Below, in pieces: positions 1-26,370 of a stretch of DNA of 32,000 nt; the first letter of the stretch is position 1, and each line of letters begins with the position of its first letter. The stretch spans positions 3,090,001 through 3,122,000 of the forward strand of contig NC_010546.1 of NCBI RefSeq assembly GCF_000017845.1, given 5' to 3'. The stretch comes from Crocosphaera subtropica ATCC 51142. Lineage in GTDB: Bacteria > Cyanobacteriota > Cyanobacteriia > Cyanobacteriales > Microcystaceae. The translations under genes and the position numbers were made by a program. The notes beneath the pieces are model-generated. The model ran no database searches, was not told the origin of the DNA, and saw only the letters and a program-made list of their open reading frames with translations.

Positions 1-3000
1 ATCAAGTTCAAAATCGGTGATGGTATCAATATCATTAGGTATTTCACCTAAAGCAAACCAAAACTGATCGGCTCCTGTTCCCCCTGTAATAACATTGCGA
101 TCGCCAAGAAGATAAAAAATATCATCTCCGCCACCTCCAAAAGCTCGGTTGTTGTCACCCAAGAGGAAAGTATCATTACCAGATCCACCATATAAACGGT
201 TACCACCAGTTCCTGCTGTTGTGTCAATGAGATCATTTCCTGAGCCTGCGAAAACGATATCATCAGTCCCATTAAAGTCGGGAGTAACGCCAGCGTCAAA
301 GGTATCATTCCCAACAGTCCCAAAGGACAAGATTTCTTCGGTAACAGGTGCTTCAGTCACTTCGAGGGTAACAGTTGTCGTGTCAGAATTATCAGTTCCG
401 TCATTTGCTTGATAGGTAAAGCTATCTGTCCCTGAAAATCCTTCATTGGGGGTATAGGTAAAGGAACCATCTTCATTGAAATCAAGGGTTCCATTACTTG
501 GCCCTTCGTCCACAATAGCACTTAAAGGATCACCATCAGCATCTGTATCATTATCTAACACATTACCGGTAATAGCAGCATTTTCTTCCAGGCTATAGCT
601 ATCATCAGTGGCCACAGGAGGGGTATTCACAGGAGGTGGCGTAATACCGTCAATGGTAATAGTTGCTGTGGCTGTATCCGTTCCTCCTTGTCCATCACTG
701 ACAGTGTAGTTAAAGCTATCAGTGTCGGTTTCTCCGTCTTCTAAGTTGTCAAAGACTCCATTGGGGTCATAACTATAACTGCCATCACTGTTGAGGGTTA
801 ATAATGCACCTGAAGCTAAGGTAACTTGACTACCAACATCAGAAGCTTGTCCATTAACTTCAGTAACACTGAGACTGTCTCCATCCGCATCACTATCGTT
901 GGTTAAAACATTACCAGCAAGAGAAGCATTTTCAGGGGTACTGTTGCTATCATCAGTGGCCACAGGAGGGGTATTCACAGGAGGTGGCGTAATACCGTCA
1001 ATGGTAATAGTTGCTGTGGCTGTATCCGTTCCTCCTTGTCCATCACTGACAGTGTAGTTAAAGCTATCAGTGTCGGTTTCTCCGTCTTCTAAGTTGTCAA
1101 AGACTCCATTGGGGTCATAACTATAACTGCCATCACTGTTGAGGGTTAATAATGCACCTGAAGCTAAGGTAACTTGACTACCAACATCAGAAGCTTGTCC
1201 ATTAACTTCAGTAACACTGAGACTGTCTCCATCCGCATCACTATCGTTGGTTAAAACATTACCAGCAAGAGAAGCATTTTCAGGGGTACTGTTGCTATCA
1301 TCAGTGGCCACAGGAGGGGTATTCACAGGAGGTGGCGTAATACCGTCAATGGTAATAGTTGCTGTGGCTGTATCCGTTCCTCCTTGTCCATCACTGACAG
1401 TGTAGTTAAAGCTATCAGTGTCGGTTTCTCCGTCTTCTAAGTTGTCAAAGACTCCATTGGGGTCATAACTATAACTGCCATCACTGTTGAGGGTTAATAA
1501 TGCACCTGAAGCTAAGGTAACTTGACTACCAACATCAGAAGCTTGTCCATTAACTTCAGTAACACTGAGACTGTCTCCATCCGCATCACTATCGTTGGTT
1601 AAAACATTACCAGCAAGAGAAGCATTTTCAGGGGTACTGTTGCTATCATCAGTGGCCACAGGAGGGGTATTCACAGGAGGTGGCGTAATACCGTCAATGG
1701 TAATAGTTGCTGTGGCTGTATCCGTTCCTCCTTGTCCATCACTGACAGTGTAGTTAAAGCTATCAGTGTCGGTTTCTCCGTCTTCTAAGTTGTCAAAGAC
1801 TCCATTGGGGTCATAACTATAACTGCCATCACTGTTGAGGGTTAATAATGCACCTGAAGCTAAGGTAACTTGACTACCAACATCAGAAGCTTGTCCATTA
1901 ACTTCAGTAACACTGAGACTGTCTCCATCCGCATCACTATCGTTGGTTAAAACATTACCAGCAAGAGAAGCATTTTCAGGGGTACTGTTACTATCATCAG
2001 TGGCCACAGGAGGGGTATTCACAGGAGGTGGCGTAATACCGTCAATGGTAATAGTTGCTGTGGCTGTATCCGTTCCTCCTTGTCCATCACTGACAGTATA
2101 GTTAAAGCTATCAGTGGCGGTTTCTCCGTCTTCTAAGTTGTCAAAGACTCCATTGGGGTCATAACTATAACTGCCATCACTGTTAAGGGTGAGTAATGCA
2201 CCTGAAGTTAACGTGATTTCAGTACCAACATCAGCACTTTCTCCATTGACCTCTGTAACCGTTAAAGCATCCCCATCAGCATCTGTGTCATTATTCAAAA
2301 CATTGCCAGCAAGAGAAGCATTTTCAGGGGTACTGTTACTATCATCAGTGGCCACAGGAGGGGTATTCACAGGAGGTGGCGTAATACCGTCAATGGTAAT
2401 AGTTGCTGTGGCTGTATCCGTTCCTCCTTGTCCATCACTGACAGTGTAGTTAAAGCTATCAGTGTCGGTTTCTCCGTCTTCTAAGTTGTCAAAGACTCCA
2501 TTGGGGTCATAACTATAACTGCCATCACTGTTAAGGGTGAGTAATGCACCTGAAGTTAACGTGATTTCAGTACCAACATCAGCACTTTCTCCATTGACCT
2601 CTGTAACCGTTAAAGCATCCCCATCAGCATCTGTGTCATTATTCAAAACATTGCCAGCAAGAGAAGCATTTTCAGGGGTACTGTTACTATCATCAGTGGC
2701 CACAGGAGGGGTATTCACAGGAGGTGGCGTAATACCGTCAATGGTAATAGTTGCTGTGGCTGTATCCGTTCCTCCTTGTCCATCACTGACAGTGTAGTTA
2801 AAGCTATCAGTGTCGGTTTCTCCGTCTTCTAAGTTGTCAAAGACTCCATTGGGGTCATAACTATAACTGCCATCACTGTTAAGGGTGAGTAATGCACCTG
2901 AAGTTAACGTGATTTCAGTACCAACATCAGCACTTTCTCCATTGACCTCTGTAACCGTTAAAGCATCCCCATCAGCATCTGTGTCATTATTCAAAACATT

Positions 3001-5508
3001 GCCAGCAAGAGAAGCATTTTCAGGGGTACTGTTACTATCATCAGTGGCCACAGGAGGGGTATTCACAGGAGGTGGCGTAATACCGTCAATGGTAATAGTT
3101 GCTGTGGCTGTATCCGTTCCTCCTTGTCCATCACTGACAGTATAGTTAAAGCTATCAGTGGCGGTTTCTCCTGTTTCTAAGTTGTCAAAGACTCCATTGG
3201 GGTCATAACTATAACTGCCATCACTGTTGAGGGTGAGTAATGCCCCAGAGGCTAAAGTGATTTCAGTACCAACATCAGCACTTTCTCCATTGACCTCTGT
3301 AACCGTTAAAGCATCCCCATCAGCATCTGTGTCATTATTCAAAACATTGCCATTAACAGATGAATCTTCAGACGTGCTGTTACTATCATTGCTGGCAACG
3401 GGAGGGGTATTAGGAGTAAAGCCATCAATAGTAATGGTTGCTGTAGCTGTATCCGTTCCTCCTTGTCCATCACTGACAGTGTAGTTAAAGCTATCAGTGG
3501 CGGTTTCTCCTGTTTCTAAGTTGTCAAAGACTCCATTGGGGTCATAACTATAACTGCCATCACTGTTGAGGGTGAGTAATGCCCCAGAGGCTAAAGTGAT
3601 TTCAGTACCAACATCAGCACTTTCTCCATTGACCTCTGTAACCGTTAAAGCATCCCCATCAGCATCTGTGTCATTATTCAAAACATTGCCATTAACAGAT
3701 GAATCTTCAGACGTGCTGTTACTATCATTGCTGGCAACGGGAGGGGTATTAGGAGTAAAGCCATCAATAGTAATGGTTGCTGTAGCTGTATCCGTTCCTC
3801 CTTGTCCATCACTGACAGTGTAGTTAAAGCTATCAGTGGCGGTTTCTCCTGTTTCTAAGTTGTCAAAGACTCCATTGGGGTTATAACTATAACTTCCATC
3901 ACTGTTGAGGGTGAGTAATGCCCCAGAGGCTAAAGTGATTTCAGTACCAACATCAGCACTTTCTCCATTGACCTCTGTAACCGTTAAAGCATCCCCATCA
4001 GCATCTGTGTCATTATTCAAAACATTGCCATTAACAGATGAATCTTCAGACGTGCTGTTACTATCATTGCTGGCAACGGGAGCAGTATTAGAACTATCAG
4101 CAAAGGTTACAGTAGCTTCATTGGTACTTGAGTCAACTTCGTAACCATCACCAGGGACTAGGGTATAAGTTACTGTTGAGGGTTCTTCAGGGGTTCCATC
4201 ATTAAAAATAGGGGAACTAATTGTGGCAGTTTGTTCAGTAATGGTAAAGGAAAAACCCGTATTATCAAAATCGGGAACCGGGAACTGACCCCCTGTGACA
4301 CTAACATTAAACAGGTCTAACTGATTCAAATTTTGTGCCACGTCTCCATTAACCGTAACCGTGACTCCTTCTGGTGGTGGGGGTTCGCTAAGGGTAAAGG
4401 TAAAGGTTAAAACCGTTCCGTCTGACTCGTAGAGAATATCGGTGTTAGTTTCTAGGGAAACAGTGGGAGGCGAGGGAGGAGGGGCAAGTTGGGAACGAGT
4501 ATCAGCTAGAGTAAAAGTGATCTCACTGGCGTTAGGATCAACATCATACCCATCTCGAGGCAGCAACCTAAAAGTGGATTCTTCCACCCCTTGATCGTCA
4601 TTGCGGAATTCAGTATTGGGAAAATCGATATTACCCTGTGCTACACGATCGCGATCGTTAAAAATGGGAAAGGTAATAGTGGCAGTTTGAGCAGTAATTT
4701 GAAAGTCAAATGCACTGTTATTACTATTACCTCCAAGGGGTCGTCCCCCGCTAAAAGGTGGAGGAGGAAAAAGAGTAAAGTCTCCTAAAGACCAAGGTAC
4801 ATCATTGGCAATGGTAACAATAACCCCATCTGGAGGGGGTGGTTCACTCAGGGTGAAGGTAATAGTGGTTGCAGTGCCTTCATCTTCAACTAAAACTAAG
4901 TTATCGGCGGTAATACCAATCCTAGGCTGGAATACACCGGCGTAAGCTCGTTGTGTTTGGGGTAAAAAGGCTAATTTTTCTGTAATCTGCCCAAGTTTAA
5001 AATTAAGATCCCAATTTCCCCCTTTTAAGGCATTACCCACACGATCGCTGGATGCTGCAATATTTGCCCCAGTAATCTGGTGTAAACGGTCTAAGAAGCG
5101 ACGGCCTTGTTCTCCTAATGCCACCTGACAGCCATAGAGTAGCATTGATACTCCACTCAGTTTACCAGACCAACTTTTTAGTTGACTAAGATACTTATCG
5201 AAAGTATGAAGGCTCAGTTGGGTGTTTCCCAGTTGTATTCCTCCTGCCCAACCATGAGAAACGAGGTGAATACTCGCAATATTCCTGTGGGTGGCTAAAA
5301 CTTCGGTGATTTGTTCAATGCCGTCTCGATGACGATCTAGAATAATACTGGTTACTCCTTCGGCAACCCCTTGTTGCAACTGTTGAGGATGATCAACGTT
5401 GCCGTCGATGATGACTAATCTTGTATTTTCTATCATAGAAGTCTGATTGTCCTGTACAAATTGTGAAAATAACTGTCTGTGATCTTGATGGTTACGATAG
5501 GTTTCCAT
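1..5508 (-). CDS. Giant secreted repeat adhesin-like protein, C-terminal end cut by the window edge (1836 aa visible). Domains: DUF4347, two Calx-beta-like modules, at least 10 near-identical plus flanking degenerate ~113-116-aa VCBS/cadherin-like repeats, and RTX Ca-binding nonapeptides. Likely a type I secretion substrate.
   Basis: Absent from the ORF track because it has no stop in the window. Reverse-strand translation from the ATG (complement of 5506-5508, with AGGAAA 6 nt upstream) gives METYRNHQDHRQLFSQFVQDNQTSMIENTRLVIIDGNVDHPQQLQQGV...IHLVSHGWAGGIQLGN...MLLYGCQVALGEQGRRFLDRLHQITGANIAASSDRVGNALKGGNWDL, which is the DUF4347 pattern. Two ~115-aa modules follow (TFTLSEPPPP[DE]GV.VT...TATI..PIFND). 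The repeat units read NDSNSTSEDSSVNGNVLNNDTDADGDALTVTEVNGES..GSYSYNPNGVFDNLETGETATDSFNYTVSDGQGGTDTATATITIDG. The last residues in the window are ...FAGSGNDLIDTTAGTGGNRLYGGSGNDTFLLGDNNRAFGGGGDDIFYLLGDRNVITGGTGADQFWF..ITDFELD (RTX GGxGxD, about nt 40-320). Frame check: 5506 and 1 are both 1 mod 3, and both repeat periods are multiples of 3. Confidence 0.85.
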   Translation of the reverse strand, partial: METYRNHQDHRQLFSQFVQDNQTSMIENTRLVIIDGNVDHPQQLQQGVAEGVTSIILDRHRDGIEQITEVLATHRNIASIHLVSHGWAGGIQLGNTQLSLHTFDKYLSQLKSWSGKLSGVSMLLYGCQVALGEQGRRFLDRLHQITGANIAASSDRVGNALKGGNWDLNFKLGQITEKLAFLPQTQRAYAGVFQPRIGITADNLVLVEDEGTATTITFTLSEPPPPDGVIVTIANDVPWSLGDFTLFPPPPFSGGRPLGGNSNNSAFDFQITAQTATITFPIFNDRDRVAQGNIDFPNTEFRNDDQGVEESTFRLLPRDGYDVDPNASEITFTLADTRSQLAPPPSPPTVSLETNTDILYESDGTVLTFTFTLSEPPPPEGVTVTVNGDVAQNLNQLDLFNVSVTGGQFPVPDFDNTGFSFTITEQTATISSPIFNDGTPEEPSTVTYTLVPGDGYEVDSSTNEATVTFADSSNTAPVASNDSNSTSEDSSVNGNVLNNDTDADGDALTVTEVNGESADVGTEITLASGALLTLNSDGSYSYNPNGVFDNLETGETATDSFNYTVSDGQGGTDTATATITIDGFTPNTPPVASNDSNSTSEDSSVNGNVLNNDTDADGDALTVTEVNGESADVGTEITLASGALLTLNSDGSYSYDPNGVFDNLETGETATDSFNYTVSDGQGGTDTATATITIDGFTPNTPPVASNDSNSTSEDSSVNGNVLNNDTDADGDALTVTEVNGESADVGTEITLASGALLTLNSDGSYSYDPNGVFDNLETGETATDSFNYTVSDGQGGTDTATATITIDGITPPPVNTPPVATDDSNSTPENASLAGNVLNNDTDADGDALTVTEVNGESADVGTEITLTSGALLTLNSDGSYSYDPNGVFDNLEDGETDTDSFNYTVSDGQGGTDTATATITIDGITPPPVNTPPVATDDSNSTPENASLAGNVLNNDTDADGDALTVTEVNGESADVGTEITLTSGALLTLNSDGSYSYDPNGVFDNLEDGETDTDSFNYTVSDGQGGTDTATATITIDGITPPPVNTPPVATDDSNSTPENASLAGNVLNNDTDADGDALTVTEVNGESADVGTEITLTSGALLTLNSDGSYSYDPNGVFDNLEDGETATDSFNYTVSDGQGGTDTATATITIDGITPPPVNTPPVATDDSNSTPENASLAGNVLTNDSDADGDSLSVTEVNGQASDVGSQVTLASGALLTLNSDGSYSYDPNGVFDNLEDGETDTDSFNYTVSDGQGGTDTATATITIDGITPPPVNTPPVATDDSNSTPENASLAGNVLTNDSDADGDSLSVTEVNGQASDVGSQVTLASGALLTLNSDGSYSYDPNGVFDNLEDGETDTDSFNYTVSDGQGGTDTATATITIDGITPPPVNTPPVATDDSNSTPENASLAGNVLTNDSDADGDSLSVTEVNGQASDVGSQVTLASGALLTLNSDGSYSYDPNGVFDNLEDGETDTDSFNYTVSDGQGGTDTATATITIDGITPPPVNTPPVATDDSNSTPENASLAGNVLTNDSDADGDSLSVTEVNGQASDVGSQVTLASGALLTLNSDGSYSYDPNGVFDNLEDGETDTDSFNYTVSDGQGGTDTATATITIDGITPPPVNTPPVATDDSYSLEENAAITGNVLDNDTDADGDPLSAIVDEGPSNGTLDFNEDGSFTYTPNEGFSGTDSFTYQANDGTDNSDTTTVTLEVTEAPVTEEILSFGTVGNDTFDAGVTPDFNGTDDIVFAGSGNDLIDTTAGTGGNRLYGGSGNDTFLLGDNNRAFGGGGDDIFYLLGDRNVITGGTGADQFWFALGEIPNDIDTITDFELD
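603..4064 (-). repeat. In-frame tandem repeat array inside the giant adhesin gene, with ten units in three homogenised blocks. A-type is 4 x 348 bp (603-1994), B-type is 3 x 348 bp (1995-3038), C-type is 348 + 2 x 339 bp (3039-4064). Degenerate units flank the array at about 350-602 and 4065-4140.
   Basis: The anchor string catcagtggccacaggagg / cattgctggcaacgggagg recurs at 603, 951, 1299, 1647, 1995, 2343, 2691, 3039, 3387, 3726 and 4065. Units within a block are identical or differ by 1-3 nt by eye. The repeated antisense ORFs in the track (2189/2537/2885 and 3227/3566/3905) show the same 348- and 339-nt periods. Confidence 0.95.
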
Positions 5509-5648
5509 AAGAGATTTCCTGTGCTGACAAAAATAGGGAGTGATTCTTGAAGCAGCAGATGACCTTGGCTGTTTGTTGAGCCTATAAAAATGATATCTAT
5601 TAATGATAGTGATCATAGAAAAACATAACACTTTTCATCGAATGCTGC

Positions 5649-10957: not shown

Positions 10958-13630
10958 ATGAAGCAATCTCTTTTTTTTCCCAGTCTTTTTGTGAGTAGTG
11001 CGATCGCCGTATGTGTTTCCCAACCTGCTTGGAGCCAGCCACTTCCCCCCATTGTCCAGATCACCGATCTACGGTTAGAGGCAACGGCAGAAGGGTTGGC
11101 TTTGGTCATTACCACCGCCGACGGTTCACCCCCGCAATTTTTTGAAACCCGCTCAGGGAACACCCTCGTCATCGATTTATTGGATGCTCGGTTGAGCTTA
11201 CCGGGGGGAGGAAAAGAGTTTGTTCAGCAAAACCCCGTCGAAGGGATTGCTTCAATTACCATTAAACAACAGTATCAAACAGGGGTATTCGTCACCATTG
11301 TGGGAGAAACAGAGGTTCCCGTTGCCCAACTGACCACAACCCCCTCCGGACTGGCTGTTCGCTTGCCTGAAACGGGAACAGGGGCGATCGCCCGAACCGA
11401 AATCCCCTCACAAGCCCCTGAAGTTTCTACCACCCCCCCTGACTTGCAACCCCCTGGGTCAACGACTGCCCCGCCGATACCTGGGGAAGAGCCTCAAACT
11501 CCAGTTCAGCCCCCTACCGGTCCCGAAGAATTGCCCGAAGTGATGGTCACTGCCGAACCAGATCCACCACCCCCCCCAGAACCTACCCCAGACCCTCCCC
11601 CGCAACCCCCTCGCTCTCCCTTAGCCGACCGAAGCTATACCCCTCCGAAAACCTCCTCCGTCTCTAGGGATGATTCGCAAATCTTAGACACAGCCCAAGA
11701 CATTGATGTGGTGACAGAAGAAATCATTGAAGACCGTGCTGACCGAACGGTAGGAGAAGCCTTAGAAAATATTAGTGGGGTCACCAGTGGTCGCGCTCCC
11801 ACCAGTTCTGTGGCCTTAACGCCGATTATTCGGGGGTTTGAGTCACAAAATATCCTGAGAAACGGGATGAGAGATGATACCCAGCGATTTTTTGGAGGAA
11901 TTACCACTAATGTAGAACGGATCGAAGTGTTGAAAGGGCCTGCGTCCATTTTGTTTGGTCAAGGAAACCTAGGGGGAACGGTGAATTTAGTGACGAAAGT
12001 TCCCCAACCTGAGTCATTCTTTTCCTTTGAATTTCGAGCCGGGGAATACGATTTTTATCGCCCTGAAATCGATCTTACCGGACCGCTTAATGAGGATGGG
12101 ACAGTGTCCTATCGTCTTGCTGCGTCCTTTGAAACCGCCCGTACCTTCAAAGACTTTGAAGACATTGAAGAGCGTATTTTAATTGCTCCTTCTGTGCGTT
12201 GGGATATTAGCGATCGCACACAAATGATCATTGAAGCAGAGTATATTAAAGAAAAAACCAATGCTCTGGCTCCTGAGTTGCCCGCCGAAGGTACGGTTTT
12301 GAGGAATCCCAACACAGATTTTGAAGGGGAGTTACCCATTGACCGAAATTTAGGAGAACCCTCCTTAGTCGAGAGTTTTGGCTATGTTTCGAGGGTGGGG
12401 TATCGCTTTAAGCATGAGTTTAGTGATAATTGGACCTTTAAAAACGAATTTCTAGCTGCTTTTGGACGAGTGCCAGAAGGGGATGGTAGTGTCTTCATTT
12501 TACCTGTTTCCCTCGGAAGAGATTTGCGGACTTTGACCCGTTTACTGGCAGAAAATCCCTCGAAAGCAGATAATTTCACCATCAATACTACCCTGGTGGG
12601 TAATTTTAAGACTTGGGACATTGACCATAAATTGCTCTTAGGGTTTGAGTATGCTGAAGAACAAACCGAAGATGTGTTAGTCTTTCGGCAAATCGATCCC
12701 ATTGATATTTTCAACCCTATCTATCGTCCTGAGTCCGTAGACCAACCGTTAACCTTCCAAGATTTTCAGTCCCATTTGAATGCGTCAGGGTTTTATTTTC
12801 AAGACCAAATTACCTTATTTGACCGTTTTATTGTGGCCTTGGGCGGACGGTTTGATTATACAGATTTAACCTATACTGATTTTCTGCGAGAAGAAACCCT
12901 AGAAATCAACGATGAGGTGTTTAGTCCCCGTGTTGGCCTCGTTTATAAAGTAACCGATAATATTTCCCTGTATGGTAGCTTTGCCCGTTCCTTTGAACCC
13001 GTTGTTGGCCAAAGTTTTGAGGGAGAGGTATTTGACGCAGAGCGAGGAAAACAGTATGAAGTGGGGGCAAAAGCTCTTTTGTTAGACGAAAAGCTTTCCC
13101 TTTCTGTGTCATTCTACGATTTAACCCGAACCAATCAACTCGAACAAGATCCCGAAAATGCCGGGTTCCAAATCCAAATTGGAGAACAGAGAAGTAGTGG
13201 CTTTGAATTTGATATGATTGGGGAAATTTCACCAGGATGGAATATTATTGGGACATATAGTTACACCGATGCCTTTGTTTCGGAAGACTTAAGACCCGAA
13301 TTTGAGGGGCGCAAACTCCCTAATGTTCCCCTCCACGCAGCCAGTCTCTGGACAACTTACACGTTCCAAGAAGGAACCTTTGAAGGGTTAGGATTTGGGT
13401 TTGGTTTATTTTACCAAGATGAGCGTCAAGGGGATTTGGCCAACACTTTTGTCCTTCCTGCTTATATCAGAACGGATGCTGCTTTATTTTATCGTCTTGG
13501 AGATATTCGGATAGCTTTTAATGTCAAGAACCTATTTGACCACGAATATTATGAAGGAGCGAGGAGTCGTAGTAGAGTTAATCCAGGCGCACCCTTTACC
13601 TTCCAAGGAACCCTCTTTTGGCAATTTTAA
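10958..13630 (+). CDS. TonB-dependent (siderophore-type) outer-membrane receptor with an N-terminal AMIN-like domain and a proline-rich linker
   Basis: 890 aa. Signal peptide MKQSLFFPSLFVSSAIAVCVSQPAWS. AMIN-like segment ITDLRLEATAEGLALVITTADG..NTLVIDLLDARL. Pro-rich segment at about aa 150-215. Plug motifs: DIDVVTEEIIEDRADRTVGEALENISGVTSG and IERIEVLKGPASILFGQGNLGGTVNLVTK. The beta-barrel ends in the aromatic terminus FQGTLFWQF. Confidence 0.9.
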   Translation: MKQSLFFPSLFVSSAIAVCVSQPAWSQPLPPIVQITDLRLEATAEGLALVITTADGSPPQFFETRSGNTLVIDLLDARLSLPGGGKEFVQQNPVEGIASITIKQQYQTGVFVTIVGETEVPVAQLTTTPSGLAVRLPETGTGAIARTEIPSQAPEVSTTPPDLQPPGSTTAPPIPGEEPQTPVQPPTGPEELPEVMVTAEPDPPPPPEPTPDPPPQPPRSPLADRSYTPPKTSSVSRDDSQILDTAQDIDVVTEEIIEDRADRTVGEALENISGVTSGRAPTSSVALTPIIRGFESQNILRNGMRDDTQRFFGGITTNVERIEVLKGPASILFGQGNLGGTVNLVTKVPQPESFFSFEFRAGEYDFYRPEIDLTGPLNEDGTVSYRLAASFETARTFKDFEDIEERILIAPSVRWDISDRTQMIIEAEYIKEKTNALAPELPAEGTVLRNPNTDFEGELPIDRNLGEPSLVESFGYVSRVGYRFKHEFSDNWTFKNEFLAAFGRVPEGDGSVFILPVSLGRDLRTLTRLLAENPSKADNFTINTTLVGNFKTWDIDHKLLLGFEYAEEQTEDVLVFRQIDPIDIFNPIYRPESVDQPLTFQDFQSHLNASGFYFQDQITLFDRFIVALGGRFDYTDLTYTDFLREETLEINDEVFSPRVGLVYKVTDNISLYGSFARSFEPVVGQSFEGEVFDAERGKQYEVGAKALLLDEKLSLSVSFYDLTRTNQLEQDPENAGFQIQIGEQRSSGFEFDMIGEISPGWNIIGTYSYTDAFVSEDLRPEFEGRKLPNVPLHAASLWTTYTFQEGTFEGLGFGFGLFYQDERQGDLANTFVLPAYIRTDAALFYRLGDIRIAFNVKNLFDHEYYEGARSRSRVNPGAPFTFQGTLFWQF

Positions 13631-18960: not shown

Positions 18961-21900
18961 ATGACCAATATTCCTGTTTATCTCAAAGCTAATGTTATTG
19001 TCGAACCCTTGATCAATCAATGGTATGCTTGGTCCTATTTAATTTCTCCTGCAACGGCGGCCATGTATGTGGCTAATGCTCACATTGAAATGATGGAATC
19101 ATTTGTGGCTGCACCTCACGTCCATTGTTCGGCATTGAAAAATCCTGCTATGATTGGGGGGCCGTTTATTAATTATGATGAAAGTCGCTTAGGAGAAATT
19201 AAAGGATTATTGGAGAGAACGAAACAGGAACAAAGACATTTAATAAACTTGGCACGAGCTATTGCTCAATTAGAACAAATTTTGAGCGAAGAAGCAAAGG
19301 GTTACTCGTTAGAACCCTTATATGAAAAGGTTCCAGAGGAGTTAAAAGGCTATGTAGAATTAGTTTATGACAGTTATAATCATCCGTCCATTCGTTTGAT
19401 CGAAAGATTGCTTTACCACAGCCCTTACTATAACCCTCACAGTCAAAGCATTGCCCTATCCTTAGAAAACCCCGATCGCCGTTCTTTTGTTCTTAGTACC
19501 CCTCGCTTGCCTTCTGTGCAAAATTTGCACATTAATTTACCGTTCAACGCACCACCACTGGATCAGTTCTTTGCAATGCGTCATACCCCTCAATCTTATG
19601 ATGAGATTAAAGAGGCTTTATCTATAAAATCAGACCAAGAAGCCTTATTTTCCTCCTTTTTTACCGAAGAAATTCCTAAAACGACGAAATCCTATGAAGG
19701 AGAAGGGGTAAGAATTCGTTATTTTGGTCATGCCTGTATCTTAATAGAAACCCAAGGGGTGAGTATTCTTTGTGATCCCCTCATTAGTAATGAAAACCCC
19801 ACAGGAATGCTTCGTTATAGCTATGCTGATTTACCACCTAAGATTGATTATGCTCTGATCACCCATAATCATCAAGATCATGTGATGCTAGAAACCTTGT
19901 TACAAATACGCCATAAAGTAGGTACGGTGGTGGTTCCGAAGAGTCACAAGGGACTGTTAATTGATCCGTCTCTGAAACTGGCTTTGGAATTTATCGGGTT
20001 TACTCAGGTGAGGGAAATGGATGAACTGGATACCATTGAGATTCCTGGGGGACAGATTATTAGTTTACCGTTTTTGGGGGAACATGGAGACTTAAATATT
20101 GGGGCAAAAACGGCTTATTTAATACAGGTAAAAGAGCGTTCGATTTTATGTGCAGCAGATTCCAATAATATTGAACCAAGGCTTTATGATCACTTATATG
20201 ATTTATTTGGCAATCTAGATGTTTTATTTATTGGCATGGAATGTGACGGTGCGCCCTATACTTGGGCTTATAACCCGTTATTAACAGGAACCCGTGCTAA
20301 GAAAATGGCAGAAACCCGGCGACTGGATGGCTCTGATGCTGAAAAAGCGATAGGATTGGTAGAACGGTTTTCTCCTCAACAGGTTTATGTCTATGCGATG
20401 GGTCAAGAACCTTGGTTAACCTATATTACGTCTCTTCAATATACGGATCAATCTCGTCCTATCATTGAATCTAACCGACTGGTGGAATATTGTCGCAACC
20501 GTAATATTATCAGTGGGCGATTATTGGGTCGTCAGGAGATGTTTTTGGAGGCAGAAGCAGGGAGTAAGGAGCAGGGAGTAGGGAGCAGGGAGCAGGGAGC
20601 AGAGGGAGCAGAGGGAGATCAGGTGAATAGGAAAGAGGGGGAGAAATCAATGAATGAGTTTTTAGCGGAATTGGAGCGTTTGGATATTAAACTACGGTTA
20701 GAAGGCGATCGCCTGCGATGTAATGCGCCGAAAGGGGTGTTAACGCCAGCTATCAAAGAAGCACTACAAACCCGTAAGTCTGAAATTATCGCTTTTTTGA
20801 CGCCACCAAAAACACAGGCAAATTTAAACGCTGAAGCGGTTATTGATTCCACCATTGTCCCCCAAACTCCCATCAAAATAGTTACAAAACCCGCTACAAT
20901 CTTTTTAACGGGCGCAACGGGGTTCTTAGGAACGTCCCTACTTTATGACTTATTAAAAGAGACTTCAGCGACCCTCTATTGCTTAGTTAGGGCTGAAACC
21001 GTCGAAGCAGGAAAAGAAAAACTCTGCCACGGACTAAAATTAAATTATGGTTGGGATGATGCCTTTGCGCCTCGTATGATTCCTCTGCTTGGAGACTTAT
21101 CTAAACCCTTACTAGGACTCTCCCCAGAACAGTTTCAGCAGATAGCAAGGGAAAGCGAGGTTATCTATCATAATGGGGCATGGGTGAATCATACAGCCCC
21201 TTATTCTCGCTTAAAGTCTACCAATGTTTTAGGAACCCAAGAAGTGCTACGCCTAGCCTGTGAGGGAAGGGCTAAACCCGTTCATTTTATTTCTACCGTC
21301 AGTGTGTTTAACCCTAATGATCTGTCTCAAAAACGGGTGATTAAAGAGAGCGATGCGTTAGACCCAGAGGAAGTTCCATTAGGGGGTTACGCCCAAAGTA
21401 AATGGGTTGCGGAAAAATTGGTTAAAATAGTGGAGGAAAGGGGTTTACCTGTGTCTATTTACCGCATTGGCCCGATTTCAGGTCATAGTCAAACGGGCCT
21501 TTTTAATCCCCATGATTTCCTGTATAAATTAATTATGGGCTATGTTCACTTAGGATCGGCTCCTGAAGGGGAAATGTTGTTAGATATTTTACCTGTGGAC
21601 TATGTGAGCCGTGCTATTGTTGATTTATCTCGGCAACCAGGATCGTTGGGTAAAGCTTTCCATTTGATTCATCCTCACCCTGTTTCTTCTAACCTTCTAT
21701 TTGAGCAACTGGAGGAGATGGGTTATCCTATTGAGCGGATTGCCTATGAACAGTGGTATACTAAGCTTTTAGCGGTGGCAAAGACTTCCTCGGAGCATCC
21801 TTTATATCCTTTAGTTCCCCTCTTCTCTGCTGTTCGCTCTGATGATGCCTCAGCTAAATCGTTTAATTTAAAATTTGATTGTTATAATACTTTCGAGGGA

Positions 21901-22008
21901 TTAAAGAATAGTTCTCTTACCTGTCCTCCTATCGATCACCCATTACTTAAAACTTATATCTCCTTTCTACTCGAAAACGGCTTTTTATCTACATCAAATG
22001 ATGATTAG
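18961..22008 (+). CDS. Tripartite fusion protein: CmlA-like di-iron (metallo-beta-lactamase fold) beta-hydroxylase (aa 1 to ~529), a low-complexity linker, an internal TubC-type docking domain (aa 564 to ~613), and a thioester reductase (TD/R) domain (aa ~645-1015) with no carrier domain
   Basis: 1015 aa. An N-terminal ~250-aa helical region (YLKANVIVEPLINQWYAWSYLISPATAAMY) is followed by an MBL core, YFGHACILIETQGVSILCDPL...ITHNHQDHV. The HxHxDH residues are H302/H304/D306/H307, with later acidic residues E374 (LGEHGD), D400 (AADS) and E427 (MECDG). Dock: MNEFLAELERLDIKLRLEGDRLRCNAPKGVLTPAIKEALQTRKSEIIAFL. R domain: IFLTGATGFLGTSLL (NAD(P)-binding), YCLVRA, GGYAQSKWVAEKLV (YxxxK), PVDYVSRAIV. 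Confidence 0.85.
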   Translation: MTNIPVYLKANVIVEPLINQWYAWSYLISPATAAMYVANAHIEMMESFVAAPHVHCSALKNPAMIGGPFINYDESRLGEIKGLLERTKQEQRHLINLARAIAQLEQILSEEAKGYSLEPLYEKVPEELKGYVELVYDSYNHPSIRLIERLLYHSPYYNPHSQSIALSLENPDRRSFVLSTPRLPSVQNLHINLPFNAPPLDQFFAMRHTPQSYDEIKEALSIKSDQEALFSSFFTEEIPKTTKSYEGEGVRIRYFGHACILIETQGVSILCDPLISNENPTGMLRYSYADLPPKIDYALITHNHQDHVMLETLLQIRHKVGTVVVPKSHKGLLIDPSLKLALEFIGFTQVREMDELDTIEIPGGQIISLPFLGEHGDLNIGAKTAYLIQVKERSILCAADSNNIEPRLYDHLYDLFGNLDVLFIGMECDGAPYTWAYNPLLTGTRAKKMAETRRLDGSDAEKAIGLVERFSPQQVYVYAMGQEPWLTYITSLQYTDQSRPIIESNRLVEYCRNRNIISGRLLGRQEMFLEAEAGSKEQGVGSREQGAEGAEGDQVNRKEGEKSMNEFLAELERLDIKLRLEGDRLRCNAPKGVLTPAIKEALQTRKSEIIAFLTPPKTQANLNAEAVIDSTIVPQTPIKIVTKPATIFLTGATGFLGTSLLYDLLKETSATLYCLVRAETVEAGKEKLCHGLKLNYGWDDAFAPRMIPLLGDLSKPLLGLSPEQFQQIARESEVIYHNGAWVNHTAPYSRLKSTNVLGTQEVLRLACEGRAKPVHFISTVSVFNPNDLSQKRVIKESDALDPEEVPLGGYAQSKWVAEKLVKIVEERGLPVSIYRIGPISGHSQTGLFNPHDFLYKLIMGYVHLGSAPEGEMLLDILPVDYVSRAIVDLSRQPGSLGKAFHLIHPHPVSSNLLFEQLEEMGYPIERIAYEQWYTKLLAVAKTSSEHPLYPLVPLFSAVRSDDASAKSFNLKFDCYNTFEGLKNSSLTCPPIDHPLLKTYISFLLENGFLSTSNDD
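20547..20617 (+). repeat. Purine-rich short tandem repeat inside a CDS: seven consecutive heptamers AG[C/T]A[A/G][A/G]G (20556-20604), then 2 x AGCAGAGGG. It encodes the linker EAEAGSKEQGVGSREQGAEGAEG.
   Basis: Read directly: agcaggg agtaagg agcaggg agtaggg agcaggg agcaggg agcagag ggagcagagggag. The same motif family forms the cores of the three MITE-like copies and occurs at 15310-15333 and 18072-18100. Confidence 0.9.
20650..20799 (+). other. Internal TubC-N-type (beta-hairpin) docking domain, preceded by its own SD-like GAGGGGGAG and an in-frame ATG. This is a possible internal translation start for a dock-reductase protein.
   Basis: ATG at 20650-20652 is residue M564 and is in frame ((20650-18961)/3 = 563). 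gagggggag lies at 20635-20643. The domain is roughly 50% identical to aa 5-53 of NRPS-1, and this domain class is normally at a protein N-terminus. Confidence 0.6.
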
Positions 22009-22076
22009 GAAGAGTTTGAACCGTCTCAAACAAATTTTCCCCTATTTATAACTTTTGACTTCTTCACTTATGTCCT

Positions 22077-22991
22077 ATGACTTCCCAAACCCCCCACACG
22101 TCCCCAACCATGCTTACTGAAGACCGCTATACTGAATACGATACTTGGGCCTGGCTTTATAACGAAACGATGGGGCCTGAGTATGGTAAAAATCAAGAAA
22201 AGCCGATAGAAACCCTGTTACTGTCTCGCCTAGGAGAAGAGGCCACACTGCTGGATCTCTGTTGTGGAACGGGGCATTTAACTCAACAATTACTAGAAAA
22301 AGGGTATCAAGTTACGGGATTTGATGGCTCTGAGGGAATGTTAGCTTATGCGAGACAAAATGCCCCAAACGGTAGGTTTTTGGTCGGAGATGCCCGTGGG
22401 TTCAATTTGCCGAATGAGTTTGATGGGGTTGTTTCAAGCAGTGCTTCTCTCAATCATATTTTAAGTCTAGAAGATTTAAAAAAGGTCTTCGAGAATGTTT
22501 ATATAGCTTTGCGAAACAATGGGTTATTCTTATTTGATATGAATCATCCCGAACAGATGAAAAAATGGTGGAAAGGTAAAATTGTTGAGGGAGAAATTGC
22601 TGATGAGTATGCTTGGATGTTAGTTCCTAATTATAATGCTGAAGATAAGACAGGGAATTTTGCCATTACCCTTTTCCAAGCTCCCAATAGTCAATATTTT
22701 TCTTTATGGTCTGTGTTGAAATATCCTTTTAAGCAACTTTTATATAAACTTTTAAACTTAAGGCTATTGACTCGATTTCGGTTAAAATTATTAGCCAATT
22801 TTTCAACATGGGAAAAAGAATGGCAGCGATCGCAAATGGTTTATCAAGTAAGAGGATATGATGTAGAAGAGATTAAAATGCTTTTAGAATCAGTAGGTTT
22901 TGTTGACGTAGAGATCCGAATTATTGACGGAAGTTGTAACTTAGATAGTAATCATTCCGCTTATTTTATCTGTCGTAAACCAAGTACATAA
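22077..22991 (+). CDS. Class I SAM-dependent methyltransferase
   Basis: 304 aa. Motif I LLDLCCGTGHLTQQLLEKGYQVTGFDGSEGML, post-I GDARGF, motif II/III region FDGVVSSSASLNHI...LRNNGLFLFD. An alternative start is Met12 (22110). Confidence 0.85.
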   Translation: MTSQTPHTSPTMLTEDRYTEYDTWAWLYNETMGPEYGKNQEKPIETLLLSRLGEEATLLDLCCGTGHLTQQLLEKGYQVTGFDGSEGMLAYARQNAPNGRFLVGDARGFNLPNEFDGVVSSSASLNHILSLEDLKKVFENVYIALRNNGLFLFDMNHPEQMKKWWKGKIVEGEIADEYAWMLVPNYNAEDKTGNFAITLFQAPNSQYFSLWSVLKYPFKQLLYKLLNLRLLTRFRLKLLANFSTWEKEWQRSQMVYQVRGYDVEEIKMLLESVGFVDVEIRIIDGSCNLDSNHSAYFICRKPST

Positions 22992-23013
22992 TTAATTATA
23001 AATCAGTAACCAT

Positions 23014-24504
23014 ATGCAAGTTAGTTCTAAAAATAAATCAGAGATTCAGGCACAAGCTCTAAAAAACTTAATTGAATCTCATACCCAAAAAACGGCTAAA
23101 TCAAAACAACTCGCCCAACAAAACCGTCCAATTTTAGCCGATCGCAGTGCCTTGGGCATTAAGTTTTCTCCTAACCTCAAAGAAATCTGTTATCCTATTA
23201 TTATAGAACGCTCTAAAGGGCCCAAAATTTGGGATATTGACGGCAACGAATACGTTGATATTCTGATGGGATTAGGGATTAATTTATTTGGTCATAATCC
23301 CGACTTTATCAAAAAAGCGATCGCTCAACAACTAGAACAAGGTATACAAGTCGGTTCTCAAACCACCTTAGCTGCTGAAGTCGCCCAGTTAGTCAAAGAC
23401 TTGACAGGTGTGGAACGGGTGGCCTTGAGTAATACAGGAACAGAAGCGATCATGGCGGCCATTCGGATAGCCAGATCAGTCACCAAACGTCCGAAAATAG
23501 CCCTATTTACCAACTCCTATCATGGTCATAGCGATCAAACTTTGGTCAGAGCAACCTTGGCTGAATATGCGAAAAAAGCCATAAATCGTAAAATTGTTGA
23601 AAAAACAGCCAATAATAACTGGTTAAACAAGCTAACTCGTCCCCTACAAAGCCAACTGCAAAACAACCTTAACCCCAAAGCGGTTCCGGCTGCCTTGGGT
23701 ATTCCCCCCAGTCTAGCCAAGGATGTCTTGGTGCTAGAATACGGTAACGATCGCTCCCTAGACATCATTAAAGCCTACCGCCAGCAACTGGCCGCCATTT
23801 TAGTCGAACCCGTTCAAAGTCGATGTCCAGAGTTGCAACCCCAAGCTTTTCTCAAAACCTTACGGCAAGTGACCCAAGAAGCAGATATTGCCCTTATTTT
23901 TGATGAAATGGTGACTGGGTTTCGTATTCATCAGGGAGGCGCACAAGCATGGTTTGGGGTAGAAGCTGATATTGTCACCTATAGTAAGATTGCGGGTGGA
24001 GGGTTACCTTTATCTATTATTGCAGGGAAAGCAGCTTATTTAGACCGTATTGATGGGGGAATGTGGCAGTTTGGGGATGACTCATCTCCCCTTGTTGAAC
24101 CCACCTTTTTTGCAGGAACCTATTGTAAACATCCCCTCTCCTTAGCTGCGGCCAAAGCAACTTTAGATCATCTCAAAACTGAGGGGCTTAGCCTTCAAGA
24201 CGGACTTAACCGCAAAACAGCGAAATTCGTTACTATTTTAAACAGTGAACTGAAAGCTAGAGATAGGCCCATACAATTCACTTATTTTGGCTCATTTTTC
24301 GCCTTGGATCTTTCTCAAAGTGTTATTTCACCCTTAGCCCTCAACTTACTGTCCTATTATTTACTCCGTCGAGGGGTGCATTTACGGCAAGGTGATCGGG
24401 GTGGCTTTTTATCCACAGCCCATACTGAGGATGATATTAAGTTTATCATCCAGGGCTTTTTAGACAGTATCAATGACTTACAAATGGGAGGATTTTTAGG
24501 TTAA
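23014..24504 (+). CDS. Class-III PLP-dependent aminotransferase (glutamate-1-semialdehyde aminomutase-like, of the kind found as AMT domains in hybrid NRPS/PKS lines)
   Basis: 496 aa. KGPKIWDIDGNEYVDILMGLGINLFGHNP, SNTGTEAIMAAIRIARSVTKRPKIALFTNSYHGHSD, FDEMVTGFR, and the PLP-lysine context DIVTYSKIAGGGLPLS. It contains a ~55-aa insertion (AEYAKKAINRKIVEKTANNNWLNKLTRPLQSQLQNNLNPK). Confidence 0.85.
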   Translation: MQVSSKNKSEIQAQALKNLIESHTQKTAKSKQLAQQNRPILADRSALGIKFSPNLKEICYPIIIERSKGPKIWDIDGNEYVDILMGLGINLFGHNPDFIKKAIAQQLEQGIQVGSQTTLAAEVAQLVKDLTGVERVALSNTGTEAIMAAIRIARSVTKRPKIALFTNSYHGHSDQTLVRATLAEYAKKAINRKIVEKTANNNWLNKLTRPLQSQLQNNLNPKAVPAALGIPPSLAKDVLVLEYGNDRSLDIIKAYRQQLAAILVEPVQSRCPELQPQAFLKTLRQVTQEADIALIFDEMVTGFRIHQGGAQAWFGVEADIVTYSKIAGGGLPLSIIAGKAAYLDRIDGGMWQFGDDSSPLVEPTFFAGTYCKHPLSLAAAKATLDHLKTEGLSLQDGLNRKTAKFVTILNSELKARDRPIQFTYFGSFFALDLSQSVISPLALNLLSYYLLRRGVHLRQGDRGGFLSTAHTEDDIKFIIQGFLDSINDLQMGGFLG

Positions 24505-24561: not shown

Positions 24562-24861
24562 ATGGCAGTTATGGGAAAATATTGTAAGGCATATCTTTTA
24601 AAAGATTTACGTCAATTTAGTCAGTGGACTGAACAAGCAGAAAATGTCAGGGAAGAAACCCAAGAGGTTGAAGGGAAGCAAGTTCAAGTTAAGCGAAAAT
24701 TAAGGGATGATGATTTTCTCTATTTACAAGAAAATTATGTGGTTACCGATGGCATTTTTAAGGATGAAAACATTATTTTTGACAAGGTAACTGATGACTG
24801 GAAAGACTTTTGTAACAATAGACTCCAGTTTGAAATCCCTTTAGCTGTTGAGTCTAATTAA
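24562..24861 (+). CDS. Conserved hypothetical protein (99 aa)
   Basis: AGGAGG lies about 10 nt upstream. The N-terminal GKYCKAY.L..LR.F..W motif resembles a small cyanobacterial protein family of unknown function (from memory). No catalytic motif was recognised. Confidence 0.55.
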   Translation: MAVMGKYCKAYLLKDLRQFSQWTEQAENVREETQEVEGKQVQVKRKLRDDDFLYLQENYVVTDGIFKDENIIFDKVTDDWKDFCNNRLQFEIPLAVESN

Positions 24862-25008
24862 TGGGAAAAGTTGTAATTTTCCTTGATAAATCTGAGCAAT
24901 GATTTATGGAGCAACTATGTTTATTCCTTGAGTTGAAAAATCAAAATGAACCCAGTATAATCATTCCATGAAAAGCTGACAATCAATCTAAATTAATTGG
25001 AGAAAACC

Positions 25009-25230
25009 ATGCAACAAGATCACAGAGAAGATACAACGATCTATCGAGTTGTGGTCAACCACGAAGAACAATATTCTATTTGGCCAGAGTATCGAGACAT
25101 TCCTCCAGGTTGGCGAGATACAGGAAAAAGTGGACAAAAACAAGAGTGTCTTGACTATATCAAAGAAGTTTGGACAGATATGCGTCCTCTCAGTTTACGC
25201 AAAAAAATGGAAGAATCTGCTCATGGTTAG
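25009..25230 (+). CDS. MbtH-like protein (NRPS adenylation-domain chaperone)
   Basis: [49 protein letters not shown] carries the N.E.QYS.WP...P.GW...G....CL.YI...WTDMRP signature. I chose the ATG at 25009 (GGAG 7-10 nt upstream) over the track start at 24997, which is a TTG. Confidence 0.9.
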
Positions 25231-25272: not shown

Positions 25273-25734
25273 ATGACCCAACCTTATCCTAACTATTTAC
25301 TTGAGTTGCTAGTTCCTTGGGACTTACCCATCGAACAGCAACTTGATGAGTTTGATAAGGAACAATTAACCAAAATACTTGATCAATTTTTACAAGCTTT
25401 AGAACAACCATCCCCAGAAAAAGAACGCATTATTATTGAGCAAATATTAGTCTCCCTTGAAACAATAGAAGTGTTTCCTGTTGAGATTCCCTCAACAAAA
25501 TCTTATCTTGAAAATTGGGAGGTTGCTGATTACGATAAATATTTTGATGTTATGCGTGTACAAAGTGCTAAACCTGCATTTTCCCTATTAAAAGGAGTTG
25601 TGATCGCTTACCACGCCTTTTTATCACTTCATTATCAAAATAAACAATTAAACTCAACACAAATAGTATTGCAAAAGCAAGGATTTATTAGTTATGCTTG
25701 TTTACTGATTAGAGTGTGTGATTTACCCTTATAA
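25273..25734 (+). CDS. Hypothetical protein (153 aa), acidic and predicted helical, no recognisable motif
   Basis: The ORF follows the MbtH-like gene after 42 nt on the same strand inside the NRPS cluster. I recognise no family. Confidence 0.45.
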   Translation: MTQPYPNYLLELLVPWDLPIEQQLDEFDKEQLTKILDQFLQALEQPSPEKERIIIEQILVSLETIEVFPVEIPSTKSYLENWEVADYDKYFDVMRVQSAKPAFSLLKGVVIAYHAFLSLHYQNKQLNSTQIVLQKQGFISYACLLIRVCDLPL

Positions 25735-25842
25735 AAACCGATGATTTTTTTGAATAAGTATTAACAAAAAACCAGAATAAGTGGCTAAACAAAATTACTT
25801 ACACATCAACACTAGCGAATTAATTTTGCACAACTACTGAAT

Positions 25843-26370
25843 ATGAATAAACTTAACTCTGTACAAACTTGGAAAGGCTTTCACTGGGCTTTTTTTATCA
25901 ATATCCAGGGACTCATTATCTGTCTACAACGCTTTGAAAAATATGTAATGACTGAGGATATTCCCAAAGCAAAAATTGAACTAGAAACAGCAACACAGCT
26001 AATTTTAGCCTCTGGTGCAGCCATGCAACTCGCAGGAAGTTTTAACCGACAAGAATATGAAAATAAAGTGCGTCAAACCATGACTCCGCCTTCTGTACAG
26101 TCAGAAAATTTTAGCGGTTTGATGTCTTGGGAACACGCTTCTTTAATACAGCTTTGGAAAAAACTTCGACCTGTTTTTGAAACTTTACCACCGTCTTTAA
26201 AACCACATCATGAAAAGTTTGTTGCTGCTTATTTTAGTCTGATTAATTCCCATAAAAAAGTTTGTAAAAAATTTGGTGGTGGCGAATCAGGAAGTTTACG
26301 GTTTGGTAATACAAAAGCCGTTGATACCTTGGAAAAATTTGGTCATGGGCGAGCTAAACTGATTAAGTAA
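25843..26370 (+). CDS. Hypothetical protein (175 aa), helical. The stop codon lies in the terminus of MITE copy 2.
   Basis: ORF in the cluster. Motifs FSGLMSWEH and SHKKVCKKFGGGESGS are noted, but I cannot place them in a family. Confidence 0.5.
   Translation: MNKLNSVQTWKGFHWAFFINIQGLIICLQRFEKYVMTEDIPKAKIELETATQLILASGAAMQLAGSFNRQEYENKVRQTMTPPSVQSENFSGLMSWEHASLIQLWKKLRPVFETLPPSLKPHHEKFVAAYFSLINSHKKVCKKFGGGESGSLRFGNTKAVDTLEKFGHGRAKLIK

Follow-up and report, generated by a model that had tools for sequence, protein, structure and literature searches.

A siderophore cluster of Crocosphaera subtropica ATCC 51142, built from nonribosomal peptide synthetase (NRPS) and polyketide synthase (PKS) genes, raises the question of how its finished chain leaves the assembly line and which end group the chain receives. 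We analysed a stretch of 32,000 nucleotides, referred to here as the window (contig NC_010546.1, positions 3,090,001 to 3,122,000 of the forward strand, C1:3090001-3122000), and genome-wide searches covered the 5.46-Mb, six-contig assembly. In the window, genes for a thioester reductase (R), a methyltransferase (MT) and an aminotransferase (AT) adjoin one another on the plus strand (Table 1). A preliminary description of this DNA had called the three consecutive and had predicted release by thioester reduction, followed by transamination and then methylation. The consecutive arrangement and the coordinates proved exact, but the true gene order is R-MT-AT. The predicted chemistry is supported by intact reductase motifs, the absence of a thioesterase, the lineage of the AT and synteny with anachelin and Agrobacterium loci. 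Because gene order, adenylation (A) domain code, an SfmD-like gene pair, R, AT and MT all match the anachelin and Agrobacterium cassettes, this part of the window is very probably the tail-forming section of a Dmaq-type cassette, of the anachelin and fabrubactin kind, in an NRPS-PKS siderophore cluster. Dmaq, a 1,1-dimethyl-3-amino-tetrahydro-dihydroxyquinolinium unit, is the iron-binding end group of these two siderophores.

The cluster spans roughly 75 kb and extends about 55 kb past the window genes, with exbB, tonB, transporters and further NRPS/PKS genes. The downstream NRPS/PKS genes comprise three multi-module NRPS genes, one single-module C-A-T NRPS, an oxidase domain and a KS-AT-KR-ACP module. 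The open reading frames (ORFs) scanned in the window gave no match to the PF00975 thioesterase, and neither did those of 200 aa or more that were scanned as far as C1:3174913, a range that ends before a 1275-aa ORF at C1:3176016-3179843. Genome-wide, three thioesterase domains were located, at C1:1.43, 1.48 and 3.90 Mb, with the window at 3.09-3.12 Mb, and the nearest of them is more than about 700 kb from the R-MT-AT genes. The remark in the preliminary description that no thioesterase is present was thus upheld. The thioester reductase is the only chain-release domain of the cluster.

R forms residues 645-1015 of a 1015-aa ORF (18961-22008) and matched PF07993 (3.8e-64) as well as TIGR01746, with 341 bits at a cut-off of 213. 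Its Rossmann motif and Thr/Tyr/Lys set are intact (TGATGFLG at 20908-20931, STVS within 21286-21306 and YAQSK at 21388-21402). R aligned end to end with the terminal reductase of MxaA (PDB 4u7w, E 2e-95) and the motifs line up. The catalytic Tyr and Lys, which had been singled out for checking, are therefore retained, with YAQSK aligned to its counterpart in 4u7w. Across the genome, R of the window was the sole strong NAD_binding_4 match.

The preliminary description had recognised this reductase domain correctly, but it had overlooked that R is the last part of a fusion in which a CmlA-type hydroxylase and a docking domain precede it (CmlA-dock-R). The hydroxylase, the docking domain and R share one reading frame. 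The hydroxylase part matched PDB 8a90 over its full length (E 8e-142) and CmlA itself (4jo0, E 1e-115), and it combines CmlA_N with a metallo-beta-lactamase fold carrying HxHxDH (HNHQDH), as expected of the CmlA family. No PP-binding domain was detected by Pfam in the CmlA-dock-R protein; R is uncoupled from its carrier and appears to act in trans, unlike the characterised Dmaq examples. To place this form among relatives, we scanned named genomes for the family of the 175-aa protein of the window, with one genome per species, which gave 128 relatives, and examined the loci of the best 80 of these 128. The CmlA-dock-R form of the cassette was present in 39 of the 80 named loci, including that of Crocosphaera watsonii WH 8501, and in loci holding both parts the CmlA and dock-R portions were fused in one frame in 47 of 50. 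The CmlA-type hydroxylase was absent from the Anabaena cylindrica (A. cylindrica) locus L060 and from the Agrobacterium cassette.

The module preceding CmlA-dock-R, NRPS-1, ends in the acidic tail EEEVTEEREEIEI. By motif anchoring, its A-domain code reads DAPTLGAVNK, with Leu at position 299, where the preliminary description had given Val. The identical code was found in all 62 related loci with a readable module before R, A. cylindrica included, and in the A. tumefaciens module next to R. Neighbouring modules have different codes; in A. cylindrica, for instance, the module preceding the DAPTLGAVNK module has a Ser code, as the structure of anachelin requires. We infer from these codes that NRPS-1 loads the residue that R releases, a DOPA/Tyr precursor. 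Loci with R and AT, some also with MT, that lack the SfmD-like pair have other A-domain codes. Seven cyanobacterial loci (L045, L046, L047, L049, L051, L052 and L053) carry R and an AT of the same lineage without the pair; a shorter MT stands beside R and AT in four of them (L045, L051-L053). The modules adjoining such pair-less loci have codes such as DLTKIGHVGK, DVGEIGSIDK and DSALIAEVWK.

Downstream of the AT lie two small ORFs whose part in the pathway had been missed. The preliminary description had captured the R, AT and MT chemistry, which is backed here, but had passed over a candidate enzyme pair for the conversion of Tyr to DOPA. None of the 99-, 153- and 175-aa ORFs had a match in Pfam or NCBIfam, even with an E threshold of 10. 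A profile of the 175-aa family, built from eleven homologues, matched residues 181-353 of SfmD in the PDB (6vdp, E 1.4e-16); H98 and an HxxxC motif (H137/C141) are invariant in the family, and the ESM Atlas assigned the protein to SfmD_perox (0.93). It is 48.5% identical to its A. tumefaciens homologue and 28.6% identical to RenD. In related loci, a homologue of the 153-aa ORF always lies directly upstream of the homologue of the 175-aa ORF, and the two often overlap. The 153-aa protein is 30% identical to one of two A. tumefaciens genes annotated as siderophore biosynthesis protein. Its family profile found no solved relative by sequence in the PDB; its AF2 model (pLDDT 84) had SfmD as top Foldseek match at a non-significant E of 0.25, and VIA-align returned generic helical bundles only. 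SfmD, the 3-methyl-L-tyrosine peroxygenase of saframycin biosynthesis and a haem enzyme that hydroxylates the tyrosine ring, is one chain of 365 aa, whereas here the candidate enzyme is split over two genes, as reported for FbnL/FbnM. Reitz et al. (eLife 2026, citing Vinnik et al. 2021) describe FbnL/FbnM as a two-protein haem peroxidase that converts L-tyrosine to L-DOPA and by which antiSMASH recognises Dmaq biosynthesis. The 153- and 175-aa genes fit this pattern by homology and position. In most relatives the two genes abut or overlap by a few bases, and in the window they are 108 nt apart (25734-25843). The 99-aa ORF is kept between AT and the MbtH gene in many related loci, with and without CmlA.

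The AT is a stand-alone ORF of 496 aa in which the pyridoxal phosphate (PLP) lysine, K325, is invariant in the alignment. Its closest solved relative was the aminotransferase (AMT) domain of MycA (PDB 6kfm, E 4e-121), with HemL at E 1.8e-52, and its fourth-best NCBIfam match was the GntE model, below the cut-off of that model. Against the hemL model TIGR00713 it scored 248.7 bits (E 8e-74), under the equivalog cut-off of 527.3, and the genome's own hemL was found at C1:160799-162064 with 608 bits. We built a quick IQ-TREE phylogeny with SH-aLRT support from 14 HemL proteins, 10 integrated AMT domains from ten cyanobacterial megasynthases and 30 stand-alone R-linked ATs. The HemL rows split off with support 100 on the longest branch, and all 30 R-linked stand-alone ATs formed one set with support 99. 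The concern raised earlier, that the AT might cluster with true HemL enzymes, is answered by this split, by the score below the cut-off and by the separate hemL. We also considered whether the AT is an integrated PKS/NRPS AMT domain of the MycA or McyE type and rejected this, as it is a stand-alone ORF and the integrated domains fall outside its clade (support 99).

An unusual insertion of about 55 aa had been noted in the AT. The insertion is real, but it measures about 37 aa (Table 1) and is not unique to this gene. The A. cylindrica-type AT lacks it, as do HemL and the R-linked ATs outside Dmaq loci. Because it also occurs in most CmlA-linked loci and, in a shorter homologous version, in A. 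tumefaciens, the insertion appears to mark an enzyme clade rather than this gene alone. It is not specific to CmlA-linked loci, since the short insert of A. tumefaciens occurs in a cassette that lacks CmlA, and in three CmlA-linked loci the AT has only a short insert or lacks one. These three loci (L044, L126 and L130) carry the CmlA-dock-R fusion, yet their AT falls in the anachelin-type clade. Because they pair CmlA-dock-R with an anachelin-type AT, the sequences indicate that the hydroxylase fusion and the downstream enzymes have recombined at least once.

The MT gave weak matches to the N,N-dimethyltransferases DesVI/TylM1, to glycine/sarcosine N-methyltransferases and to a daptide methyltransferase model. 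Its syntenic orthologues in anachelin-type and Agrobacterium loci showed 39-42% identity, and we predict that it is an N,N-dimethyltransferase.

We then compared the locus with known systems. The preliminary description had drawn a parallel with the anachelin chromophore genes and the nearby TonB-dependent receptor, and the synteny of locus L060 of A. cylindrica UHCC 0172 bears it out. L060 encodes dock-C-A-T-R, MT, AT and two small ORFs, behind which stand genes for an MFS exporter, a thioredoxin-like protein, a periplasmic binding protein and an AMIN TonB receptor. The candidate anachelin cluster described by Calteau et al. 2014 (PMC4247773) has the same layout, and these authors assigned Red, MT, AmT and 'TyrH' to Dmaq formation. 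Shared with the window are the code DAPTLGAVNK, R (54% identity), MT (39%), AT (52%) and the two small SfmD-like ORFs (65% for the 175-aa ORF) in order, together with the AMIN TonB receptor. The anachelin locus differs in that R is in cis (dock-C-A-T-R), no CmlA-type hydroxylase is present, the AT lacks the 37-aa insertion and the upstream assembly lines are others. It also has a PLP-dependent decarboxylase-like gene after its two small ORFs (L060:10570-11937); in the window, no such gene stands at the corresponding place.

Reitz et al. (eLife 2026) present Dmaq biosynthesis as established for the fabrubactins, starting with the FbnL/FbnM Tyr-to-DOPA peroxidase. We compared the fabrubactin cluster (fbn, Agrobacterium fabrum C58) only through a syntenic cluster on the A. 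tumefaciens plasmid pAtAF1_95. There, an NRPS C-A-T-R whose A domain also reads DAPTLGAVNK is followed, in the order seen in the window, by MT (42%), AT (52%), MbtH and two small genes annotated as 'siderophore biosynthesis' (30% and 48.5%). It differs in having R in cis, no CmlA domain, an alphaproteobacterial host and an AT insertion that is homologous but shorter.

The arrangement also recurred widely within cyanobacteria. In an evenly sampled set of 401 cyanobacterial genomes, 11 contained full-length AT orthologues, and the order CmlA-dock-R, MT, AT, 153-aa, 175-aa was kept in 11 of these 11 orthologous loci. The best 80 of the 128 relatives of the 175-aa protein were all cyanobacterial, and most showed the order R-MT-AT-(99 aa)-(MbtH)-153-175. 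With the order recurring in all 11 orthologous loci and in most of the 80 named loci, the gene arrangement is far beyond chance. On the C. watsonii WH 8501 chromosome (L055, 4562290-4582811), the whole cassette was found at 65-87% identity, with CmlA-dock-R, MT, AT, the 99-aa ORF, MbtH, both small ORFs and a module with the same A code.

Other pathways illustrate single steps. In myxochelin B biosynthesis, the R domain of MxcG reductively releases the siderophore as an aldehyde, which the aminotransferase MxcL converts to a terminal amine. The likeness lies in this pathway logic and in the R part of the MxcG model, which R of the window matched with E 1.3e-79; myxochelin differs in lacking methylation and a DOPA unit and in having R in cis. 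In guanitoxin biosynthesis, GntE/GntF perform aldehyde transamination and then N,N-dimethylation; none of the papers searched mentions guanitoxin together with GntE and GntF. In chloramphenicol biosynthesis, CmlA beta-hydroxylates a carrier-bound aromatic amino acid and the thioester reductase of CmlP (A-T-R) releases it, ending in an alcohol. Here, in contrast, hydroxylase and R are one polypeptide that would dock in trans, and AT and MT follow. Anachelin and CmlA were not mentioned together in any of the papers searched, and the preprint on cyanochelin C speaks of neither a reductase nor an aminotransferase or methyltransferase.

Taking these comparisons together, we propose a route for the locus. 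The 153- and 175-aa proteins, as a split SfmD-like haem peroxygenase, would convert L-tyrosine to L-DOPA. The A domain of NRPS-1, assisted by MbtH, would load L-DOPA on the thiolation (T) domain, and the condensation (C) domain would join it to the upstream peptide. CmlA-dock-R would dock on the acidic tail of NRPS-1, where its di-iron domain may beta-hydroxylate the tethered residue, and R would reduce the thioester with NAD(P)H to release a peptidyl aldehyde. The stand-alone AT would turn this aldehyde into a primary amine, the MT would dimethylate the amine, and the tertiary amine would then attack the oxidised catechol to form the quinolinium ring. A review gives the Dmaq proposal as Tyr, catechol diamine, quinone and aza-annulation. 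In the route for the window, the substrates, the step order, N- over O-methylation, the two-electron reduction and the site of beta-hydroxylation are inferred, whereas the domains, their intact catalytic motifs, the orthology and synteny, and the invariant A-domain code are observed. Because a full-length hydroxylase is fused to R, and by the logic of chloramphenicol biosynthesis, the end group is probably beta-hydroxylated.

Several points weigh against a Dmaq-type cassette. In this organism the mechanism is predicted from gene sequences. The fabrubactin likeness draws on pAtAF1_95 rather than on the C58 Fbn proteins themselves, the case for N-methylation by the MT consists of weak similarities and, in the anachelin cluster, of elimination, and the tie of the 153-aa protein to the N-terminal half of SfmD is suggestive, as judged from its structural model. 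Because the beta-hydroxylase is absent from both characterised pathways, the end product may be other than Dmaq. The release logic would then be the same, but beta-hydroxylation of the tethered residue would give as end group 4-hydroxy-Dmaq, a dehydrated chromophore or an uncyclised 1-aryl-1-hydroxy-2-acylamino-3-dimethylaminopropane, a possibility to which we give slightly less than an even chance. It is favoured by the intact, full-length CmlA domain and its near-constant fusion to dock-R where both occur, by the lack of CmlA in the A. cylindrica and Agrobacterium cassettes and by most CmlA-linked ATs and MTs forming their own, more similar group. A 2026 preprint counts 24 cyanobacterial siderophore structures, none of them from a CmlA-linked Dmaq cluster, which points the same way. 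However, the hydroxylase could act on another carrier-bound residue, and the three CmlA-linked loci with an anachelin-type AT argue against strict co-variation of hydroxylase and downstream enzymes.

The closest solved relatives of R and AT would allow a different outcome. The MxaA reductase makes an alcohol by four-electron reduction, and sequence cannot tell whether the aldehyde is intercepted; the substrate of the MycA AMT domain is a beta-keto thioester bound to a carrier rather than a free aldehyde. This AMT domain is integrated in the mycosubtilin synthase, whereas the AT of the window is stand-alone, R-linked and has 37 extra aa. Both relatives, and the KS-AT-KR-ACP module in the cluster, would suit a reading in which R carries the four-electron reduction through to a C-terminal alcohol while AT and MT act elsewhere; the AT might, for example, serve a PKS beta-keto intermediate as an AMT in trans, and the MT might methylate O or C. 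We consider this improbable, given that R, MT and AT stay adjacent across cyanobacteria and the Agrobacterium plasmid even where the rest of the cluster differs, and that the clade of stand-alone R-linked ATs excludes the integrated AMT domains. The assignment of Red, MT and AmT to the N,N-dimethyl Dmaq unit by Calteau 2014 (PMC4247773) also argues against it. Several sources annotate relatives of the AT as glutamate-1-semialdehyde aminomutase, and the hemL model does match the AT, so that it might be a spare or diverged aminomutase of tetrapyrrole metabolism that sits in the cluster by chance. With its score below the cut-off, a true hemL elsewhere in the genome, the HemL rows set apart on the longest branch of the tree and a conserved linkage to R and MT, this explanation has hardly any probability left.

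For the Dmaq-type reading, the reduce-aminate-methylate release chemistry is already published for the Dmaq family, and its occurrence here is confirmation, not discovery. The CmlA-linked form departs from the known cassette, as judged from its genes, in an R that appears to work in trans and is fused to a CmlA-type beta-hydroxylase. We tentatively suggest, at rather less than even confidence, that the CmlA-dock-R form defines a siderophore sub-family in which a single trans-docking protein beta-hydroxylates and reductively releases the DOPA-derived residue, leading to a new chromophore (4-hydroxy-Dmaq or a dehydrated derivative). If so, this chromophore would have its own iron-binding or photochemical properties. 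The CmlA-linked cassette is common in cyanobacteria, yet it has no counterpart among the 24 structures counted in the 2026 preprint. DAPTLGAVNK together with the split SfmD pair offers a marker, both simple and specific, by which such clusters can be mined. Iron supply matters to the marine nitrogen fixers that belong to Crocosphaera. Because R and AT, in some loci with MT, occur without the DOPA genes and next to other codes, reduce-aminate-(methylate) release seems to be a more general cyanobacterial module, and the trio suggests a more general way in cyanobacteria to end a peptide in a dimethylamine.

Table 1. Features of the window, with positions counted from its first nucleotide
Feature	Position	Strand	Basis or remark
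AMIN-domain TonB receptor	10958-13630	+	Upstream of NRPS-1
ABC ATPase gene and fatty-acid-hydroxylase-family gene		+	Listed between TonB receptor and NRPS-1
C-A-T-E NRPS		-	In window
NRPS-1, TubC-type docking domain-C-A-T, 1140 aa	15363..18785	+	Pfam
CmlA-type non-haem di-iron beta-hydroxylase part of fusion protein	18961..20550	+	PF18456 1.6e-96; HNHQDH at 19864-19881
Internal TubC-type docking domain	20650..20799	+	PF18563 5.2e-21, residues 566-613
Carrier-less terminal thioester reductase R	20893..22008	+	PF07993, TIGR01746, motifs
Class I S-adenosylmethionine (SAM) methyltransferase, predicted N,N-dimethyltransferase (MT)	22077..22991	+	Pfam; SAM motif LLDLCCGTG at 22248-22274
Stand-alone class-III aminotransferase, NRPS/PKS AMT lineage (AT)	23014..24504	+	PLP lysine K325 within 23977-24003
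Aminotransferase insertion, ~37 aa, residues 181-217, starts TLAEYAKKA	23554..23664	+	Alignment
Conserved 99-aa ORF	24562..24861	+	No family match; position kept in many relatives
MbtH-like protein, likely partner of NRPS-1 A domain	24997..25230	+	PF03621 4.8e-25
153-aa ORF, candidate FbnL-like N-terminal half of split SfmD-type haem peroxygenase	25273..25734	+	Position, Agrobacterium homologue
175-aa ORF, putative FbnM-like C-terminal half of SfmD-type haem peroxygenase	25843..26370	+	Profile vs PDB, ESM Atlas

Genes for two DUF4347 proteins lie beside the siderophore cluster or within it, one at 1-5631 of the window on the minus strand and the other at C1:3134604-3137078. One of the proteins has eleven Big_9/cadherin-like repeats and an RTX motif, and the gene for the other adjoins HlyD and C39-ABC export genes.

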